Under the pieces are notes generated by a model. It was not told where the DNA came from and ran no database searches. It saw nothing but the letters and a program-made list of their open reading frames with translations. A stretch of 53,639 nucleotides of DNA from Bacilli bacterium (GTDB taxonomy: Bacteria; Bacillota_I; Bacilli_A; RF39; UBA660): NCBI GenBank assembly GCA_017964405.1, contig JAGCSA010000018.1, forward strand, positions 1 to 53,639. The letters run 5' to 3'. Within the stretch, counting starts at the first letter, position 1, and the number at the start of each line of letters is the position of its first letter. The position numbers and the translations under genes are program-made. This document shows positions 932-29,838 of this stretch, piece after piece.

Positions 932-2344
932 ATGAAGAAAAATGTAACTTTGTTATTTTTATTTTTAATGATTTTAACAGTTTTATCTCCCGTAATGAAA
1001 GTATTCGCATTAGAAGATGGGCAAACAGAATTAGAAGAAATTGTGATTACAGGAGAGATTTTAACAGAATCATTAGTACCAGGACCACTACCATCATATG
1101 AAGTAGAAACATCAACTCCACATGTTTCTATAGAAGCTTATGGAGATAATACAAATTGGTCATACTTAGATAATGGTGTTTGGCATGGATTTGGAGATGA
1201 AACTCCAACTGCTGAAGAAGGTGGACCATTCTATGCAATGAAATTATGTGTAAATTTATCAGATGGATATGTATTCACAGAAAACACTAAAATCATTTAT
1301 AACACAAGAAATATGTCAGAAGATACCTATTCAAGTATTACTGCCTATGATTGGGGAGGATATGTATACATTGATTTAGGACAAATCAATGCACCTGGAC
1401 CAGATATAGAGGGTAATGTCATTAAAAGAGTGGATATTACTGTAGATATGCCAAGAATTGGTGATAATATTACCATGACAGATGGATTCCAAACACAATA
1501 TGGAGTAAATATTCGGGAAGAAAATCTAGATATCTATGGACCAGATGGTGATGATACTCATAACTATATGTACATCGTTGATACCAACGGAGACTTCTTT
1601 GAAGGAAAATTACAAGCAAACACCGACTATGATATGATCATTTGGTTAGTATCATTTGAAGATTATGTTTTTGATGATAATTTAGAAATCTATGTGAATG
1701 GTGACTTTGTTGATCAATATAATTTAGAATCTGATCAAAGATTAGGAATCGATTATGTATTCCAACCAGAAGCTCCTGATGTAACCTATACCATTACAGC
1801 AGAAGGTGGAAAATATATTGCTGTATTTAGTTTACCAGAAGGATATGATTTTGAATTAGATGTTGTTGATATCTTATCTTATACACCAGAACAAATTGAG
1901 GCAATGTTTGATGTCCCTGCAGAAACGATTGAAGAAATCATTGCAACAATCAAAGAAAATGTTAAAGAATATGGAGAACTATTAAACCTATATGCAATTG
2001 ATATTTCAGGACCTGGAATTGGTTATTCAGATGCAGTAACCATTAAGATTTTATTGACAGATGAAATGAAAAAATATGATACATTAAAGTTCATCTTTGT
2101 AGATGAAAATAACAACTTTGTAATCCAAGAAATCCATGATAGTATTGGAACAGAAACAATTGATGGAAAAGAGTATGTTGTATTTGAATTAAACCACTTA
2201 AGTGCCTATGCATTAGTAGGATCTAATACCAATAACCCAGGAACAGCCGATAAAGTAATTTATTATGCAATTATGTTAGGTCTATGTACTTTAGGTCTTG
2301 CAGGATTAGGTATTTATACGAAGAAAAAATATTTTATAAAATAA
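932..2344 (+). CDS. Acidic cell-surface protein, probable sortase B substrate
   Basis: Signal peptide ending VFA; two similar beta-rich repeats (DGYVFTENTKIIYN / EDYVFDDNLEIYVN); C-terminal NPGTAD, TM helix and KKKYFIK tail. Confidence 0.8.
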   Translation: MKKNVTLLFLFLMILTVLSPVMKVFALEDGQTELEEIVITGEILTESLVPGPLPSYEVETSTPHVSIEAYGDNTNWSYLDNGVWHGFGDETPTAEEGGPFYAMKLCVNLSDGYVFTENTKIIYNTRNMSEDTYSSITAYDWGGYVYIDLGQINAPGPDIEGNVIKRVDITVDMPRIGDNITMTDGFQTQYGVNIREENLDIYGPDGDDTHNYMYIVDTNGDFFEGKLQANTDYDMIIWLVSFEDYVFDDNLEIYVNGDFVDQYNLESDQRLGIDYVFQPEAPDVTYTITAEGGKYIAVFSLPEGYDFELDVVDILSYTPEQIEAMFDVPAETIEEIIATIKENVKEYGELLNLYAIDISGPGIGYSDAVTIKILLTDEMKKYDTLKFIFVDENNNFVIQEIHDSIGTETIDGKEYVVFELNHLSAYALVGSNTNNPGTADKVIYYAIMLGLCTLGLAGLGIYTKKKYFIK

Positions 2345-2400: not shown

Positions 2401-3135
2401 ATGAGAGTAGTTCGATTAAGACTATGGGTCATTATTGTATTAGCACTCCTATTTCTATCTGGTATCATATATTATGCCTCTAAAGTAATCATTTGGTATC
2501 AACACGTAAATGAGAATCAAGAAGTAATCAAAGAGATCAAAAAGAATATAAAAGTAAAAGAAGAAAAAGTAGAAATAGATTTTGATGCCTTAAAGGCTAT
2601 CAATCCAGATACCGTTGGTTATATTAAAGTCAATCATACCAATATCGATTATATTGTAGTAAAAGGAAATAATAATAATTATTATTTAAATCATAACTTC
2701 GAAAAGAAATGGAATGTAGCAGGATGGGTATTTGGAGATTATCGAAATCATTTTGATGAAACAGATAAGAATCTAATTATCTATGGTCATAATACAAAAG
2801 ATGGAAGTATGTTTGATAGTTTAATCAATGTATTAGAAAAAGATTGGTATAAGAATCCAGAGAATCATATCATTACTCTTATAACAGAAATGGGTACTTA
2901 TCAATATCAAGTCTTTTCAACCTATTCTATTATTCCAGAAGAATACTATATAACAACCTATTTTTCATCGGATGATCAATTTGAAAAGTTTGTAAAAGAA
3001 TTAAAAACAAGATCCATCTATGACTATGAAGTAGAAGTATCAGGAGAAGATCAAATCCTAACACTATCTAGTTGTATTGGAGAGGGCTATAAAAGAGTAG
3101 TACTTCATGCAAAATTAATAGAGAAAGAGGAATAA
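2401..3135 (+). CDS. srtB: Class B sortase
   Basis: N-terminal TM; LKAINPDTVGYI, NNYYLNHNF, IIYGHN, TLSSC and RVVLHA motifs. Confidence 0.92.
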   Translation: MRVVRLRLWVIIVLALLFLSGIIYYASKVIIWYQHVNENQEVIKEIKKNIKVKEEKVEIDFDALKAINPDTVGYIKVNHTNIDYIVVKGNNNNYYLNHNFEKKWNVAGWVFGDYRNHFDETDKNLIIYGHNTKDGSMFDSLINVLEKDWYKNPENHIITLITEMGTYQYQVFSTYSIIPEEYYITTYFSSDDQFEKFVKELKTRSIYDYEVEVSGEDQILTLSSCIGEGYKRVVLHAKLIEKEE

Positions 3136-23718: not shown

Positions 23719-24417
23719 ATGGATTTTATTAGATTAATAAACGTAGAAAAAAGATACAAAAATGGAGTAACAGCCATCTATGATTTAAACTTAGCAATAG
23801 AAAAAGGATCCTTTGTCTTTATAGTCGGTGGTTCTGGTAGTGGAAAATCCACCTTGATTAAAATGTTATATCGAGAAGAAAAGCCAACAAAAGGACAAGT
23901 TATCGTAGGTGGATTAGATGTTGCAAAATTAAAAAATAAAAAAGTGTATCGATTAAGAAGAAAATTAGGAATTGTATTCCAAGATTATAAATTATTACCA
24001 AAATTAACGGTATATGAAAATGTAGCATTCGCATTAGAATGCTTAGGAGAAAAGAAAAGTATTATCCGACAGAAAGTATTAAAATCACTAGAAGATGTAG
24101 GATTGAAGAATAAGGTTCATAGTTATCCAGATCAGTTATCTGGAGGAGAACAACAGAGAGTAGCAATTGCAAGAGCGATTGTCAATGACCCTAAATTGTT
24201 ATTATGTGATGAACCAACAGGAAACTTAGATCCAGCAAAAAGTATGGAAATTATGCAAGTATTAGAGGAGATTAATAAAAATAGAGGAACAACAATTATT
24301 ATGGCTACACACGATAAAGAAATCGTAAACAAAATGAAAAAACAAGTAATCACTTTAAAAGAGGGTCACTTAGTTACAAACAAGAAGAAAGGAAAATACG
24401 AAGATGAAGCTATTTAG
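23719..24417 (+). CDS. ftsE: Cell division ATP-binding protein FtsE
   Basis: GGSGSGKST, VFQDYKLL, LSGGEQQRVAIARA, DEPTGNLD; upstream of ftsX. Confidence 0.95.
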   Translation: MDFIRLINVEKRYKNGVTAIYDLNLAIEKGSFVFIVGGSGSGKSTLIKMLYREEKPTKGQVIVGGLDVAKLKNKKVYRLRRKLGIVFQDYKLLPKLTVYENVAFALECLGEKKSIIRQKVLKSLEDVGLKNKVHSYPDQLSGGEQQRVAIARAIVNDPKLLLCDEPTGNLDPAKSMEIMQVLEEINKNRGTTIIMATHDKEIVNKMKKQVITLKEGHLVTNKKKGKYEDEAI

Positions 24418-25303
24418 AATGTTAGGAAGAAGCATTAGAGATGCTTTCAAAAGTGTAATCAGAAACTTCAGTTTATCATTAGCCTCTATCTCTTGTATTA
24501 CGATTACCTTAATTATTGTAGCCATAGCGGTAATCGCATCCTTCAATGTACAAAACTTCACAACAGAAATTGAAAAAGATCTAACAATCGTCATATTCTT
24601 AGATGGCGAAACAACAGAAGAAGAAGCAAAACAAGTAGAAAAAACAATTAAAAAGATTAGTAATGTAAGTGAATATACATTCCAAACTAAACAAGAAGTA
24701 AAAGAAAAGATGCAAGAAGAATCAGAAGTCTTTAAAACTGTATTAGATAATTTTGAAGGAGAAGATAGCCCTTTAAAAGATACATTTCAAGTAAAAGTAA
24801 AAGATGTAGAAAAGATCAAACAAACAGCGGAAAAGATTGAAAAGATTGATCATGTATCCGTTGTAAGATATGGAGAAGGAATGGTTGATAAATTAGTATC
24901 TGCCTTTACTTCGATTGAAAAAGTAACCTATGGTATTGTATTTGCTTTAATATTAGTAACCATTTTCTTAATCGTAAATACGATTAAATTAACAATCTCT
25001 GCCAGAAGAAAAGAAATTGGAATCATGCGTCTAGTAGGAGCAAGTAACTTTACCATTAAAACACCATTCATTATTGAAGGAATGGTATTGGGTTTATTTG
25101 GTTCTATTATTCCTATTATTTTATCAACTTATGGATATATTGCTTTCTATAATCACTTTGATGGTTATTTGTATTCAGAATTAATTCAATTAATTGTTCC
25201 AGAACCATTCATCTATCAAGTATCCCTTATCGTATTAGGAACAGGTATTATCGTAGGTATGATTGGTAGTTCCGGAGCCGTAAGAAAGTACTTAAAAGTA
25301 TGA
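24404..25303 (+). CDS. ftsX: Cell division permease FtsX
   Basis: NTIKLTISARRKEIGIMRLVGASNFTIKTPFIIEG. Confidence 0.95.
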   Translation: MKLFRMLGRSIRDAFKSVIRNFSLSLASISCITITLIIVAIAVIASFNVQNFTTEIEKDLTIVIFLDGETTEEEAKQVEKTIKKISNVSEYTFQTKQEVKEKMQEESEVFKTVLDNFEGEDSPLKDTFQVKVKDVEKIKQTAEKIEKIDHVSVVRYGEGMVDKLVSAFTSIEKVTYGIVFALILVTIFLIVNTIKLTISARRKEIGIMRLVGASNFTIKTPFIIEGMVLGLFGSIIPIILSTYGYIAFYNHFDGYLYSELIQLIVPEPFIYQVSLIVLGTGIIVGMIGSSGAVRKYLKV

Positions 25304-26436
25304 GAAAGAAAATAATACCCATCTTATTAATATTAGTATTAGTAGGAAATATCATAGTTCCCACATCAGTAGAAGCAACCACCTTAAGAGAATATGAAGA
25401 ACTATTAGAAAAATATAAAAATGATTTGAATACTACCAATAACCAAATATATATGAGTAGACAAGAATTAGCAGAAATCCAATCCAAAATAGCAGATACC
25501 GAAAAACAAATTAAGGATGCGGAAGATGAAATTGCTCGTCTAGAAGAAGAGATTAAAAAGAATAATGAAGAAATAGCCAAGAAAAAAGAAGAATCCAAAG
25601 CATTAATCGAGTATTATCAAATTTCCAATGGAGAAAATATATACTTAGAATATGCTTTTGGAGCAAGTGATATAACCGATATGATCTATCGTTTATCCAT
25701 TGTAGAACAATTAACAGATTATAATGATAGAGTCATGAAAGAATTAAAAGAATTAATTCGTCAGAATGAATTAAGACAACAAGAATTAGCACAAAAAGAA
25801 GAAGAATTAAAAGAATTAAAGAAACAACTACAAGACCAAGCTAGTAGAGTAAGAGGTAATATTTCCAGTATGGAAGGATCTATTCCAGACTTACAAAACC
25901 AATTAACAAACTATGAAAACAGAGTAGCATACTATCGTAGAATAGGATGTGAACCAGATGATGTCATTGGAGTAGATTGTGATAGAGGAAATAATGCTTA
26001 TGGCTTTGTATTCCCATTAAATGGAAGTTATTGGACTTCTACAGGATTCTATTGGGATGGATACAGTGGTCATAAAGGATTAGACTTTGCACAAGGATGT
26101 GGAAATCCAGTAAAAGCAGTTGCTAATGGACGTGTATACTACGTAGGAAGTAACAAAGATATCTATGGAGCAAAGATGATATTAATTGTTCATAACTACA
26201 ATGGAAGAAAAGTATTCTCTCAATATACACACTTATCTGGATATGCCGTATCTGAAAACCAAGATGTTGCTGCAGGACAAGTCATTGGATATGTTGGAAC
26301 AACAGGATGGTCTACAGGATGTCACTTACACTTAGAGATGTCTGTCGATATGGGTTGGGATTATAACTGGCCAGGTAACTACTGGACTTATACCCAATAT
26401 ATTGTTAACCCATATGAATATATTCCAAGAGGATAA
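25300..26436 (+). CDS. Coiled-coil M23 peptidoglycan hydrolase (FtsEX partner)
   Basis: Signal peptide, PcsB/CwlO-like coiled coil, HKGLD, YTHL, STGCHLH. Confidence 0.9.
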   Translation: MRKKIIPILLILVLVGNIIVPTSVEATTLREYEELLEKYKNDLNTTNNQIYMSRQELAEIQSKIADTEKQIKDAEDEIARLEEEIKKNNEEIAKKKEESKALIEYYQISNGENIYLEYAFGASDITDMIYRLSIVEQLTDYNDRVMKELKELIRQNELRQQELAQKEEELKELKKQLQDQASRVRGNISSMEGSIPDLQNQLTNYENRVAYYRRIGCEPDDVIGVDCDRGNNAYGFVFPLNGSYWTSTGFYWDGYSGHKGLDFAQGCGNPVKAVANGRVYYVGSNKDIYGAKMILIVHNYNGRKVFSQYTHLSGYAVSENQDVAAGQVIGYVGTTGWSTGCHLHLEMSVDMGWDYNWPGNYWTYTQYIVNPYEYIPRG

Positions 26437-26462
26437 AAAGCAAGGATATCTTGCTTTTTTTT
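26437..26462 (+). terminator. Intrinsic terminator
   Basis: AAAGCAAGGA-ta-TCTTGCTTT plus T-tract. Confidence 0.75.
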
Positions 26463-26524
26463 GTTTGTTGTAGAAAGAATAAAACTATGATAGAATGATT
26501 GTAGAAATAATAGGAGGAAACCCT

Positions 26525-28702
26525 ATGAAAAAAGAAAAAGAAAACATATTTAAAAAATATAATGTTTTATTAACTATTATCTTAATCGCAACCTTCTTCT
26601 TAAGTATTGGATATGCTCAAATATCAGCCAGTAACTTGCAAGTAGAAGGTATTGCAAAAGCCTATGAAAAAGATGGTGTATTTGTATCAAACGTTACATA
26701 TAGTAGTAGTAATAATGCCAATGTAGATGCATGCTCTACGAAACAAAGAGTAGGAGCAACGGTAGCTAGTAGAATTGTACTAGGAAATTCTCAAAGTGCC
26801 TCTATTACTTACCAAGTAACTGCAACCAATGGTACCACTAAGAAATATATGTATATTGGACCATCTGTATCCGAAAACTTCTATAGTAATAATGATATTG
26901 ATTATACAATTTCTGGAATTAATGTAGGAGATACAGTTGATCCAAGTGACTCTGTCACATTTAATTTAACCTATGCTTATGCAAATGGAGTATCGATTGG
27001 AACGAACACTTCAGAATTAGATGCTTATATCAATTTTGGATTTAGAGAATTATTCCCAGTTACTTATACTTATATTAATGGAACAGGATATCCAGAATAT
27101 GTTGTCAATTATAAAGCATCTGATGCTCAACCCAATGCATTAAATGTTGATTTTGGAAGCAATGCCCCTACAGAATTAACGATAACAGGAGTGGATACAG
27201 GAACAACCTATACGTTAGGAACCGATTATACGTATACAAATGGTGTATTAAACTTTCCTAATGTAACAGAAGGATTAAATGTATCAGGACCAATTCCAAA
27301 TGATCCACCAATCATTACCAACTTATCAGAACAACAACAAACAACAGAAGGAGAAGTCAAAATTACCTTCTCTGCAACAGATGATTTAGGAATTGATCAC
27401 TTTGAATTAGAAACGATTGAAGTAGTATCCGGAGTAGAAACAGTAATTTCTACAACAACACTAGCTTCTAATGCAACAGAGACAACAATTACAAACTTAG
27501 CAGAAGGAACTTACTATTTCAAATTAAAAGTAGTAGATATTTATAACTTAGATGCGACAGCAACCACAACTACAAAATCTTATCGTTGGAATTTAAATGT
27601 AACGATCAATATTACAAATGGTGGTCCAAATGGAACAACACCAATCTCTTATGGAGACCCATTCTCAACAACCTTAACGGTAAATAATGGATACAGTAGT
27701 ATTAGTAATTTATCCGTAACAATGGGAGGACAAACACTATCAGCAAATGATTATACATTCAATCAAAATAATGGAGCCTTCAGTATCGCAACCGTAACAG
27801 GAGATGTTAATATTTCTGGACAAGCTTCTACTAACTTCTGCTTAATAGAAGGAACTGAAATTAAATTAGCAGATGGAAAAGAAAAGAAAATAGAAGACAT
27901 TGACTATGATGATTTACTACAAGTATGGAGTTATGAAGAAGGAAGAGTCGTAGAAGAATATCCTCTATGGATTGAAAAAGCAAAGAAGACCAATGTTTAT
28001 ACAAAAATAACATTCAGTGATTCTTCTGAAATCAATATCTTCTATGATCATGCATTCTTCTCTACAGAAGAAAAACAATTTGTAAGTGTTCAAGATAAAG
28101 AAAAATTCCATGTAGGAACCAAAGTATTAAAACTAACAAAAGACAATATATTAAAAGAAGTATCCGTAGAGAAAATAGAAGATATCTATGAAGAAAAGAT
28201 GTATTACTTTGTAGCATCCACAAGATATTACAATATTATCAGTGATGACTTTATCACAACAGATGCTTATACAGATATTACGAATCTATACCCATTTGAT
28301 GAAAAAGCTACTTGGACAACTCCGTTAGTAGAGCCAATTGATTATCAATACCTAGAAGATGTATTACCATATTATCTTTATAAAGGTTTTCGAGCAGGAG
28401 AAGTAGCAGTCCTATTAAATAGTAATAAAACAACAATGGAAGAATTTAAGTATTATATTTCGAATATCGTACTCGCAGAAGAAATGATGCAAAAACCAAT
28501 CGAAAAGAATGGTGCTAGATACTGGCCAATCTCAGTAGGAAGTAAATGGAGTCAAAAACAAAAACTCGTAAAAGAAGGAACATACTATCAATTACCATTC
28601 AATGGAAAAACAAAGAAATGGTATAGTACTTCCGAGAATAAGACCTATCAACCAGGAGAAGTAGTCCAAGTATGGACAGGAATGCATTTCGAAAGTAAAT
28701 AA
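26525..28702 (+). CDS. Exported beta-rich surface protein with internal Hint domain
   Basis: Leader ending FLSIGYA; T/N/S-rich Ig/FN3-like modules (NLAEGTYYFKLKVVD); CLIEGTEIKLADG Hint N-terminus; ATG 26525 after GGAGG. Confidence 0.85.
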   Translation: MKKEKENIFKKYNVLLTIILIATFFLSIGYAQISASNLQVEGIAKAYEKDGVFVSNVTYSSSNNANVDACSTKQRVGATVASRIVLGNSQSASITYQVTATNGTTKKYMYIGPSVSENFYSNNDIDYTISGINVGDTVDPSDSVTFNLTYAYANGVSIGTNTSELDAYINFGFRELFPVTYTYINGTGYPEYVVNYKASDAQPNALNVDFGSNAPTELTITGVDTGTTYTLGTDYTYTNGVLNFPNVTEGLNVSGPIPNDPPIITNLSEQQQTTEGEVKITFSATDDLGIDHFELETIEVVSGVETVISTTTLASNATETTITNLAEGTYYFKLKVVDIYNLDATATTTTKSYRWNLNVTINITNGGPNGTTPISYGDPFSTTLTVNNGYSSISNLSVTMGGQTLSANDYTFNQNNGAFSIATVTGDVNISGQASTNFCLIEGTEIKLADGKEKKIEDIDYDDLLQVWSYEEGRVVEEYPLWIEKAKKTNVYTKITFSDSSEINIFYDHAFFSTEEKQFVSVQDKEKFHVGTKVLKLTKDNILKEVSVEKIEDIYEEKMYYFVASTRYYNIISDDFITTDAYTDITNLYPFDEKATWTTPLVEPIDYQYLEDVLPYYLYKGFRAGEVAVLLNSNKTTMEEFKYYISNIVLAEEMMQKPIEKNGARYWPISVGSKWSQKQKLVKEGTYYQLPFNGKTKKWYSTSENKTYQPGEVVQVWTGMHFESK
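27839..28264 (+). other. Hint (Hedgehog/intein) domain, about 142 aa
   Basis: Block A CLIEGTEIKLADGKEKKIEDI; block B IFYDHAFF; C-terminal block MYYFVASTRYYNIISDDFITTD. Confidence 0.8.
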
Positions 28703-28725: not shown

Positions 28726-29838
28726 ATGAATCCAGGAAAAGACAATGTGACACAAATGATAGATATGATTAAGACAAAATATAGAAAGAATGAAAAATCT
28801 TCTTATCTATTAATAGGATTCTTCGCAATTCTAATAGGAATAGCCATTCTTCTCTATGCTAAAGAAAGGCAATCAGGAGAACTATGGATCATAGGAATCT
28901 TTGTTTTGATCATCGCAGGAATCTTGGTAAAAATCATATTGAAACAAAAGAAGTTCAAAGAAATGATAGAATGGATTCATGGGAACCAAGAAGAAATCAA
29001 TCAAGATTGTGAATTCATGGAAGACAATTGTTATGCAACAAAATATAGAGTCATTAAAATATACCCAGAAGCATGTAAATTAGAACAAGTAGAATTCAAT
29101 CAAATTCAAAAGATAGAAGATAGTAGATTTGTAAATACAGATAATATGCAAGATATACCAGCTCTTACGATTACAACCATGGATCAAAAGAAATATAAAT
29201 GGAGAAAAACAGATCGACTAGATTGTATTTTGCATGATGATAAAAGAGAAGAAGAAGAGTCAGAAGGAGTAAAAATGGCATCCAGTGATATCAAAGACTA
29301 TTATCAATATGATGATTATCAACAAGGATTCATCGATGTCGATTTGTTAAATGCAAAAGATGTATCGATGTGGATGGATACCGATATAGAAGAAAGTTAT
29401 GCAAATCAAGTAGCTCATACGATTAAAACTCTTACAAGAGAAGAAATAGAAGAGGCTTTAGAAAGTACCGTTTGGTTCTATAATGACAATTTAAAAGAAG
29501 ATGGATATTTCAATAAAGAACTTCCTTTAAGAATGACAAAAGAAGAAGTATTAAACTATATCACATTAAATGAAATCTATCCAAGAAAAGAAGAAAATCA
29601 AAGAATTTGCTATACGTTATTCTTCCATACAGAAATGGAACCAGAACATGGTATTTCTTGGGGATTTGAAGACAAAGAATTAATCTATGTAGGAGCAGGA
29701 GCAGATTATGCAGAAGAAAATCTAAAAGATGATTATAATTATGCTAAGAAATATCATGATCCTGTAACCTTAACAGAAGAAGAATATAAAGAATTAGAAG
29801 AAACAGGAAAAATAACAAAAAAGAAAACAGGAGAATAA
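28726..29838 (+). CDS. Hypothetical two-TM protein with acidic C-terminal EHG-motif domain
   Basis: Two TM helices; FHTEMEPEHGISWGFEDKELIYVG. Confidence 0.65.
   Translation: MNPGKDNVTQMIDMIKTKYRKNEKSSYLLIGFFAILIGIAILLYAKERQSGELWIIGIFVLIIAGILVKIILKQKKFKEMIEWIHGNQEEINQDCEFMEDNCYATKYRVIKIYPEACKLEQVEFNQIQKIEDSRFVNTDNMQDIPALTITTMDQKKYKWRKTDRLDCILHDDKREEEESEGVKMASSDIKDYYQYDDYQQGFIDVDLLNAKDVSMWMDTDIEESYANQVAHTIKTLTREEIEEALESTVWFYNDNLKEDGYFNKELPLRMTKEEVLNYITLNEIYPRKEENQRICYTLFFHTEMEPEHGISWGFEDKELIYVGAGADYAEENLKDDYNYAKKYHDPVTLTEEEYKELEETGKITKKKTGE

Follow-up and report, generated by a model that had tools for sequence, protein, structure and literature searches.

To our knowledge, bacterial Hint domains that do not splice have been known for two decades, and their role on surface proteins is mostly unknown. 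A BIL (bacterial intein-like) or other Hint domain is able to cleave without a partner domain, the first cysteine and the block-B histidine are the residues required for the N-S acyl shift, and A-type BIL domains end in His-Asn. Here we analyze a Hint-bearing protein of a Bacilli bacterium (GTDB lineage RF39; UBA660), encoded on the forward strand of contig JAGCSA010000018.1 (assembly GCA_017964405.1), whose full 53,639 nucleotides we call the window. The gene lies at 26525..28702 (+, stop codon included) and specifies 725 residues. Its product is best read as a large accessory subunit of a surface fibre of the AbpX/TasA superfamily, a donor-strand-built filament, and it ends in a BIL-like Hint domain joined to a fixed 145-residue tail. 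Our core proposal, towards which the evidence inclines us without great conviction, is that this fibre subunit processes itself at X|Cys439, the junction with the first Hint residue.

Several described systems come close to this arrangement. BIL domains without a +1 nucleophile, found in non-conserved secreted or surface proteins, mainly cleave (PMC7664689). BIL2 resolves its thioester with a lysine to give an isopeptide bond, conjugating its N-terminal ubiquitin-like domain to substrates (PMC8616854). A Hint domain and an adduct recognition region (ARR) together form the Hog domain, in which the region after Hint picks the adduct (PMC2362128), and PT-HINT is an autoproteolytic Hint located directly before the C-terminal domain of a secreted protein (PMC3482391). 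Among surface fibres, AbpX loci encode major and minor AbpX-like subunits, tip proteins, a ten-helix signal peptidase I and a DUF5305 protein, with S-layer homology (SLH) or LPXTG anchors in bacteria (bioRxiv 10.64898/2026.01.04.697558); papers on Tafi report the same pairing of peptidase and DUF5305 protein in archaea. The words "Hint" and "intein" are absent from the available text of the AbpX preprint, whose supplements (Fig. S16, tip and anchor proteins) might show a Hint-bearing subunit. Literature on thioester and cell-wall anchoring in Firmicutes included no Hint domain among the matches listed.

The Hint domain of the window protein spans residues 439-580 (27839..28264, +), as delimited by an AlphaFold2 model, Foldseek, a profile match and residue counts. 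A preliminary description, made from the DNA letters alone, had noted a cysteine at 27839, a block B reading FYDH, an ITTD terminus, no endonuclease insert and a 145-residue tail, and the translation bears out every item: Cys439 is Hint residue 1, FYDH covers residues 506-509 with His509 as the block-B histidine, and ITTD occupies residues 577-580, closing with Thr578-Thr579-Asp580. At 142 residues from Cys439 to Asp580, the domain has no endonuclease insert. Profile matches of the single protein are weak. Pfam Hint (PF01079) reached E 0.008 and 16.2 bits relative to a cut-off of 29.7 (16.2-19.2 bits over all tests), and NCBIfam intein_Nterm (TIGR01445) reached E 0.0012 and 19.8 bits relative to a cut-off of 24.5. 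Sub-threshold matches recurred among 40 family members, to Hom_end_hint in 36, Intein_splicing in 27, Hint in 23 and Hint_2 in 9, with a best E of 1.3e-6; PT-HINT (PF07591) matched one of the 40, at E 0.0069. A phmmer search of the whole protein against PDB sequences returned nothing below E 0.6. A Hint-only profile built from the 40 members, on the other hand, matched BIL2 (6y75) at E 7.1e-7, with profile positions 6-147 on chain residues 5-147.

Family relatives and predicted structure settle the identity of the domain despite these weak single-sequence matches. Residues 425-725, used as a query, found 146 proteins, and the 120 listed cover 94-100% of the query at 38-75% identity. An AlphaFold2 model of the same residues, computed from a 66-sequence alignment, has a mean predicted local distance difference test (pLDDT) value of 91.6 and a predicted template modelling (pTM) score of 0.88. 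At E <= 0.001, a Foldseek search with this Hint-plus-tail model retrieved 63 PDB chains. The top-ranked were BIL2 from the BUBL1 locus of Tetrahymena (6y75, 1.9e-9) and a Clostridium thermocellum BIL domain (2lwy, 5.1e-8), with mini-inteins and the Hedgehog autoprocessing domain 1at0 (4.1e-7) among further matches. The best chains gave TM-scores to target of 0.7-0.85, and identity to BIL2 was 15-16%. A Hint fold, as the preliminary description had proposed, is thus predicted with high confidence, and the profile and model comparisons place the domain in a divergent, unnamed Hint clade nearest to BIL domains.

Conservation was assessed over 215 full-length Hint domains. Every one of them (215 of 215) has both Cys1 and the block-B His. 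The domain closes with Asp in 182 and with Glu in 4, and 29 have an alignment gap there; a separate 79-sequence set has D in 75 and N in 2. No conserved nucleophile occupies the +1 position (G 103, A 22, R 16, S 14, Y 10, D 9, H 7), and the residue preceding Cys1, Phe438 in the window protein, varies as well (G 56, T 49, S 33, V 23, I 13 and F 9 of the 215). In alignment, the domain-end motif YYN[IV]IAN[DN]xLTTD corresponds to HNFFANGVLAH(N), where BIL2 ends. This pattern of conservation points to the N-S acyl shift at X|Cys as the step that the domain would perform. Splicing is excluded by the missing +1 nucleophile and the terminal Asp in place of Asn, in agreement with the non-splicing character first ascribed to the domain. 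We rejected a canonical (class 1) intein on the same two features and because there is no host protein to rejoin; no uninterrupted form of a host protein was found, and the Hint sits between variable stalks and one fixed tail.

The tail, residues 581-725, falls into two parts. The first (residues 581-660; 28265..28504, +) is an aromatic-rich conserved linker followed by three helices, as judged from conservation and models, and the second (residues ~661-725; 28505..28699, +) appears from structure and profile matches to be a beta-grasp subdomain related to Flg_new and InlB B-repeats. Conserved positions include N587, Y589, F591, W597 and Y607 in the linker and G621, R623 (both invariant) and E626 in the helices; the invariant or near-invariant residues of the whole tail are mostly aromatic, plus Gly, Arg and two Glu. 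Its association with the Hint domain is strict. Pairing could be judged in 213 proteins, those long enough to show a near-full tail preceded by 160 residues or more, and both Hint and tail occur in 213 of 213. The family Hint ends within 15 residues of the tail in 209 of these, the other 4 having a partial or slightly more distant Hint, and in 230 of 233 proteins no more than 30 residues separate the end of the tail from the C-terminus. The tail is therefore a fixed, obligate partner of this Hint. Modelled alone, it gave a pLDDT of 90.7 with a structured linker, three helices and a beta-rich end. Its first two 10-residue blocks scored 72 and 86 in isolation, and overlapping blocks scored 91, 91 and 84 with Hint present; this gain in model confidence beside the Hint domain is a hint that the linker packs on it.

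A tail profile run against 1.84 billion representatives matched only 271 proteins at E <= 0.001, and a few giant proteins with 8-9 Flg_new repeats matched the last ~45-60 profile positions many times over. The VIA-align matches are beta-grasp folds with tied scores (Z 4.5-4.8), comprising ubiquitin-like proteins, the InlB B-repeat 2y5p and MucBP; the 2y5p alignment covers 59 residues at a root-mean-square deviation of 2.9 and, at Z 4.5, is tied with other beta-grasp folds. Neither Foldseek nor VIA-align recognized a fold in the helical first half. The Flg_new and InlB repeat models PF09479 and PF18998 gave no direct Pfam match to the window tail at E <= 1, and Pfam on the tail alone returned only MbnP, at E 0.0045 and below its cut-off. 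A Flg_new-like end, suggested at the outset, draws indirect backing from the matches of the tail profile to repeat proteins. The ESM Atlas, queried with the tail, gave scores of 0.81-0.84, under the 0.9 lead level, and no structure record.

The N-terminal part of the protein connects it to fibres. The leader, residues 1-31 (26525..26617, +), has a basic stretch, one hydrophobic span and the motif [SG][IV]G[YF]A (here SIGYA). The export leader quoted in the preliminary description, FFLSIGYAQISASNLQVEG, is present in the translation, and the identification of an exported protein is sound. Cleavage is probably carried out by a dedicated archaeal-type signal peptidase I encoded in the family's gene cassette, at a site that we infer from the leader sequence. 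A predicted donor strand (~residues 33-50) and an AbpX-like beta-sandwich extending to ~residue 190 follow (26618..27094, +; limits approximate). The first ~160 residues, leader included, are homologous to the small AbpX-like subunit of the cassette (hhalign 99%, E 2.1e-18). Residues ~191-438 (27095..27838, +) form a middle stalk that probably consists of immunoglobulin (Ig)-like, fibronectin type III (FN3) or PKD-like modules, on the strength of sub-threshold Pfam matches to K319L-like_PKD (E 3.4e-4) and fn3 (E 0.33); fn3 appears in precomputed annotation of several homologues. The region before the Hint domain had been taken for about 400 residues of Ig/FN3 modules, a reading that gives way to the AbpX-like domain over the first ~160 residues and keeps sub-threshold PKD/fn3 matches for ~190-438. 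The sole hydrophobic span of the protein is N-terminal, with no C-terminal membrane span and no LPXTG-like motif in the last 60 residues.

Complex modelling suggests how this N-terminal part could enter a filament. We modelled residues 28-200 of the Hint protein with the small subunit of a cassette from its own genome in three runs, alongside three controls. The median score was 0.85 (runs 0.85, 0.91 and 0.00) versus 0.00 for the best of the 3 controls, with a partner pLDDT of at least 68 and run agreement of at least 0% of contacts. Of 157 solved complexes 116 attain the mark used, as do 2 of 215 mismatched pairs; this calibration applies only roughly, since we supplied our own alignments. 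TasA-like complexes have already been solved, so that part of the pass may reflect likeness to them. At the modelled interface, residues 33-50 of the Hint protein, the strand right after the leader, lie in the sheet and groove of the small subunit. This geometry is that of donor-strand complementation, and the prediction supports binding.

Across the family, the C-terminal unit is constant and the N-terminal part is not. Measured over stretches of 25 residues, identity to the query lies at 0.13-0.40 before the Hint domain and at 0.32-0.64 across Hint plus tail, so the expectation that N-termini vary around a conserved Hint-tail unit, and with it the Hedgehog-like layout of a Hint followed by an adduct-recognition-like tail, held up well. 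This polarity is opposite to that of a polymorphic toxin. The N-termini of the 213 proteins divide into 168 with the same leader, 9 of prepilin type, 2 with a camelysin/TasA-like AYF[ST]D motif, 3 with other signal peptides, including a lipoprotein-like one, and 31 that are partial or otherwise different. The prepilin-type leaders (GFTLVELL-like) were seen in P0123, P0140, P0149, P0176, P0212 and four more proteins, and their presence on nine Hint-tail proteins indicates that the C-terminal module has been grafted onto type IV pilin-like proteins.

We compared 80 related loci, drawn from uncultured Bacilli with small genomes and from bins with similar labels. Clustering of open reading frames (ORFs) yielded one conserved neighbour family, a signal peptidase I gene present in 63 of the 80, and no downstream gene family common to them. 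The usual cassette comprises a small subunit (~185 residues), the peptidase (~377 residues), a DUF5305 protein (~350 residues) and, last, the Hint protein. The peptidase is an archaeal-type signal peptidase I (TIGR02228, 90.9 bits with a cut-off of 51.85; Peptidase_S26, 29.9 bits), and the DUF5305 protein matches PF17231 at 80.8 bits. In a crude hydropathy scan the peptidase has 7-10 hydrophobic spans, with a multi-span N-terminal half, and the DUF5305 protein has 2. A small-subunit profile matched AbpX (9sj2) at E 4.2e-4 over profile positions 39-178 of 183, and Pfam on 30 small subunits gave only weak matches to DUF11, CBM_2 and DUF4352. Loci L003, L004, L012 and L035 contain, in some cases, two cassettes side by side, together with further subunits of 485-576 residues that have the same leader and no Hint. 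A full cassette with a Hint gene also occurs in bins with other labels (L049, L054, L057, L060, L063, L064, L066, L068 and others), eight such loci being binned as Candidatus Saccharibacteria and others as Muribaculaceae, Bacteroides helcogenes, Paludibacteraceae and Acidaminococcus. This points either to wrong binning of these contigs or to transfer of the cassette across widely separated lineages. Within the class, the Hint module was found in 5 of 399 scored genomes, all of one family, and two further genomes could not be scored; it occurs in 4 of the 49 other genomes of that family and in 0 of 349 scored genomes of the class's other families.

The source genome (1.28 Mb, 93.5% complete) encodes one Hint protein. 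The sequencing runs listed for this DNA include none of RNA; the DNA runs are metagenomes of animal and bovine gut, and several of them may be where the sequence comes from. Two cassettes of small subunit, peptidase and DUF5305 protein lie on other contigs, L081 (C36:14417-18544) and L082 (C42:9119-13258), and one of these own-genome cassettes is orthologous to the Hint-flanking cassettes, with peptidase and DUF5305 proteins 44-47% identical. Thirty ORFs begin with the leader type of the Hint protein, in which [LI]G[YF][AS] comes after a hydrophobic span; they often lie in tandem arrays, and 0 of the 30 carry an LPXTG or C-terminal membrane anchor. Several of the 30 end in a common ...PAFRIG motif, and the surface-protein repertoire is large for a 1.28-Mb genome. 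Seven sortase genes are present, with a few candidate substrates, whose signals (NPGTA, VPDTA, LPDTA and NPKTN) are LPxTA- or NPxT-like. One candidate lies in the window itself at 932-2344 (+), a 470-residue signal-peptide protein with a C-terminal NPGTA-type sorting signal, a hydrophobic span and a basic tail; it is adjoined by a sortase gene at 2623-3117 (+), one of the 7 sortase matches in the genome.

The Hint gene is the one long frame of its region in the ORF listing, open over 26495..28702 (+). Translation likely starts at 26525, and not at 26495, because a Shine-Dalgarno AGGAGG (26512..26517, +) lies 7 nt 5' of that ATG and homologues start at the equivalent Met. Upstream, 23719-26436 (+) holds ftsE-ftsX and then a coiled-coil M23 peptidase with a PcsB coiled-coil match, a cell-division hydrolase arrangement. 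A strong terminator-like hairpin with an 11-pair stem, followed by a T run (26435..26459, +), closes this M23 (PcsB-like) gene, and the Hint gene therefore starts its own transcription unit. Downstream, 24 nt after the Hint gene and ahead of uvrB, 28726-29838 (+) encodes a protein of 370 residues that has a DUF6985 domain (44.2 bits) and, near its N-terminus, two hydrophobic spans. The DUF6985 protein had no PDB match and a best PADLOC E of 0.0068, and a literature search found no mention of DUF6985. The Hint gene of the window is flanked by the M23 gene and uvrB with no cassette around it, and the same holds for L001. L044 holds a whole cassette between uvrB and M23/ftsX, and L048 has the same flanking genes; the solitary position in the window thus looks secondary. 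We rejected a functional tie to ftsEX-pcsB or uvrB, which neighbour the gene in only L001, L044 and L048 of the 80 loci.

The architecture, Hint fold, catalytic conservation, obligate Hint-tail pairing and cassette context established by computation, together with the complex model in favour of donor-strand binding, fit a five-step route. Leader cleavage, acyl shift and cleavage are inferred steps of it, and acceptor transfer is the least secure. The protein would be exported by its family-specific leader, which the multi-pass archaeal-type signal peptidase I probably removes. The new N-terminal strand would then enter the groove of the small major subunit, leaving the Ig-like stalk and the Hint-tail at the far C-terminal end. 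Aided by His509, Cys439 would turn the Phe438-Cys439 peptide bond into a thioester, and resolution of that thioester would part the fibre-bound N-terminal piece from the Hint-tail. Finally, the tail would bind an acceptor or position a nucleophile, in the manner of the Hog adduct recognition region, so that the N-terminal part ends in a covalent adduct. We regard such transfer of the thioester to an acceptor as a tentative proposal. Tail-directed transfer is slightly favoured over hydrolysis because the Hint domain alone can cleave yet is strictly coupled to one tail.

A broader, and doubtful, form of this idea sees in Hint plus tail a prokaryotic equivalent of Hedgehog autoprocessing, a portable C-terminal module by which bacterial surface filaments would ligate themselves. 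The tail would then steer a nucleophile of the acceptor, either a polymer of the cell's own envelope or a surface molecule of a partner or host, onto the thioester at the stalk end. In this way AbpX/TasA-type fibres, and type IV pili where the member is prepilin-led, would be coupled covalently without sortase, ATP or another enzyme; we offer this too as a possibility that we would not bet on.

Several results weigh against self-processing with transfer in a fibre subunit. None of the 40 members reaches the cut-off of any Pfam Hint-type model. The block-B Thr, three residues before the His, is Thr in only 9 of 215 domains and Val in 118 of 215, and the penultimate His of inteins is Thr here; with both residues missing, the Hint may act only slowly or under certain conditions. 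Within the tail no Lys reaches 90% conservation, so an internal lysine attack in the style of BIL2 is not indicated. Foldseek with the tail alone found nothing at E <= 0.001, and the best VIA-align score, Z 4.8, covers tail residues 81-145 only; an acceptor-binding role for the tail is accordingly proposed by analogy. On the fibre side, the match of the small subunit to AbpX is modest (23.6 bits), one of the three complex runs scored 0.00, and the Hint gene is not beside a fibre cassette in the window or in L001.

The alternative that survives best is plain hydrolysis of the thioester, to which we give a limited chance, somewhat below even the tentative standing of acceptor transfer. Here the Hint-tail would be a C-terminal pro-domain, shed by a water-resolved N-terminal cleavage with nothing ligated, and until then it might retain the subunit at the surface or prevent its assembly. 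The invariant catalytic Cys and His are consistent with this outcome, BIL domains yield mainly cleaved products (PMC7664689), and the Flg_new-like beta-grasp end of the tail could be a mere binding module. The strict pairing with one tail (213 of 213), together with the confidence that the linker gains beside Hint, suggests instead that the tail takes part.

The preliminary description had favoured a different fate for the thioester, in which an amine or lipid of the cell's own envelope attacks it and provides sortase-independent covalent anchoring, which here would be anchoring of the fibre base. Some observations are consistent with it: the Hint protein has no LPXTG signal or C-terminal span, 0 of 30 same-leader proteins have such an anchor, the Hint thioester has a chemical parallel in the sortase acyl-enzyme, and in other bacteria, according to the preprint, the corresponding position of AbpX clusters is taken by genes for SLH or LPXTG anchor subunits. 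The analysis nevertheless lent this claim no specific support. The genome has its 7 sortase genes and a few substrates with LPxTA- or NPxT-like signals, the N-terminus appears to join a fibre, the 9 prepilin-led and up to 3 lipoprotein-like or other-signal members are already tethered at their N-termini, and the module is patchy, occurring in 4 of 49 other family genomes and in none of the 349 scored in the class's other families. For these reasons own-wall anchoring is only one of several fates of the thioester, and an improbable one.

Distal adhesion reverses this orientation. A tail at the outer end of the fibre would bind a foreign surface (host, prey, partner cell or glycan), whose nucleophile would resolve the thioester and leave the fibre covalently attached. 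The N-termini fit such target-directed adhesion better than own-wall anchoring, since 168 plus 9 plus up to 3 of 213 are a fibre, pilin or lipid tether that would leave the Hint-tail distal. Adhesins contain beta-grasp folds of the Flg_new/InlB-B and MucBP-like kinds, the gene is an accessory one, patchily distributed among gut bacteria with small genomes, and internal Cys-Gln thioester domains are known to mediate covalent adhesion (PMC4450167). A tail that is conserved and not diversified is, however, unusual for an adhesin tip, and taken as a whole we judge a covalent adhesin quite improbable.

An inactive Hint, retained as a structural or binding domain after self-processing was lost, would account for the missing block-B Thr and penultimate His and for the sub-threshold Hint-model matches; the presence of Cys1 and the block-B His in 215 of 215 domains, down to ~36-40% identity, is hard to explain without catalysis and makes this very unlikely. 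Least credible is a polymorphic toxin, in which a pre-toxin Hint would free a toxic tail and the downstream DUF6985 membrane protein would confer immunity: a Hint immediately preceding the C-terminal domain, the position it has in PT-HINT toxins (PMC3482391), and a small gene 24 nt downstream do recall such systems, but the constant tail and variable N-termini have the opposite polarity, tblastn found the DUF6985 gene in 0 of 80 related loci, syntenic L001 included, only 1 of 40 members is matched by PT-HINT, nothing toxin-like turned up for the tail in Pfam, Foldseek or VIA-align, and PADLOC gives nothing for the Hint protein. We therefore rejected the toxin and immunity reading on the constant tail, the absence of DUF6985 from the 80 loci and the lack of any shared downstream family.

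With its invariant Cys and His, compact obligate tail, confidently predicted fold and defined setting in a newly recognised class of biofilm fibres (AbpX/TasA), the Hint-tail family offers a tractable case for asking what such domains do on surface proteins. Should the tail direct transfer, the family would provide the first case in bacteria of Hedgehog-like autoprocessing that yields an adduct, as well as a novel means of fixing or aiming surface filaments. If only cleavage occurs, it would be a maturation step for such fibres in poorly known small-genome Bacilli of gut and rumen. The module could also be used as a small extracellular self-cleaving or self-ligating tag.

Of the known systems, BIL domains (6y75/6tmm, 2lwy) are the best structural and sequence relatives of this Hint. 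They share a ~140-residue Hint without endonuclease, Cys1 and the block-B His, and the lack of a +1 nucleophile, and the window family likewise places such a Hint in non-conserved surface proteins. A beta-grasp domain follows Hint here as it does in BIL2. This Hint differs in ending with Thr-Asp and not His-Asn, in lacking the block-B Thr, and in being always fused to one 145-residue tail on AbpX-type fibre subunits; relative to BIL2, the window family has no conserved tail Lys, and identity is 15-16%.

The Hog domain offers a parallel in layout, with a secreted N-terminal part, a Hint and then a family-specific C-terminal region, and with only the acyl shift expected of the Hint; Hedgehog 1at0 is a structural match at E 4.1e-7. 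In contrast, PF01079 remains sub-threshold, and the window tail is modelled as a folded helical and beta-grasp unit. The sterol recognition region (SRR) is half the length of the window tail, which has no homology to SRR or ARR in Pfam, Foldseek or VIA-align, and a sterol acceptor is implausible in this organism. PT-HINT proteins differ from the window family, whose C-terminal domain is constant, which has no conserved immunity gene, and in which PF07591 is a weak match in 1 of 40 members. Sortase and LPXTG systems would share with it a C-terminal thioester on a surface protein that an amine could resolve, by analogy, whereas here the thioester would form in cis without an enzyme, no LPXTG signal is present and sortases coexist in the genome.

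As a fibre system, the cassette resembles those of AbpX, TasA and Tafi in its small AbpX-like subunit, dedicated multi-pass signal peptidase I and DUF5305 protein, and in a larger subunit with the same pilin-like N-terminal domain. Where the AbpX preprint describes SLH or LPXTG proteins as anchors, the large subunit here ends in Hint plus tail. What is new is thus a BIL-like Hint clade with an obligate tail, carried as a portable C-terminal module on AbpX/TasA-type fibre subunits and, more rarely, on pilin-like or other exported proteins.

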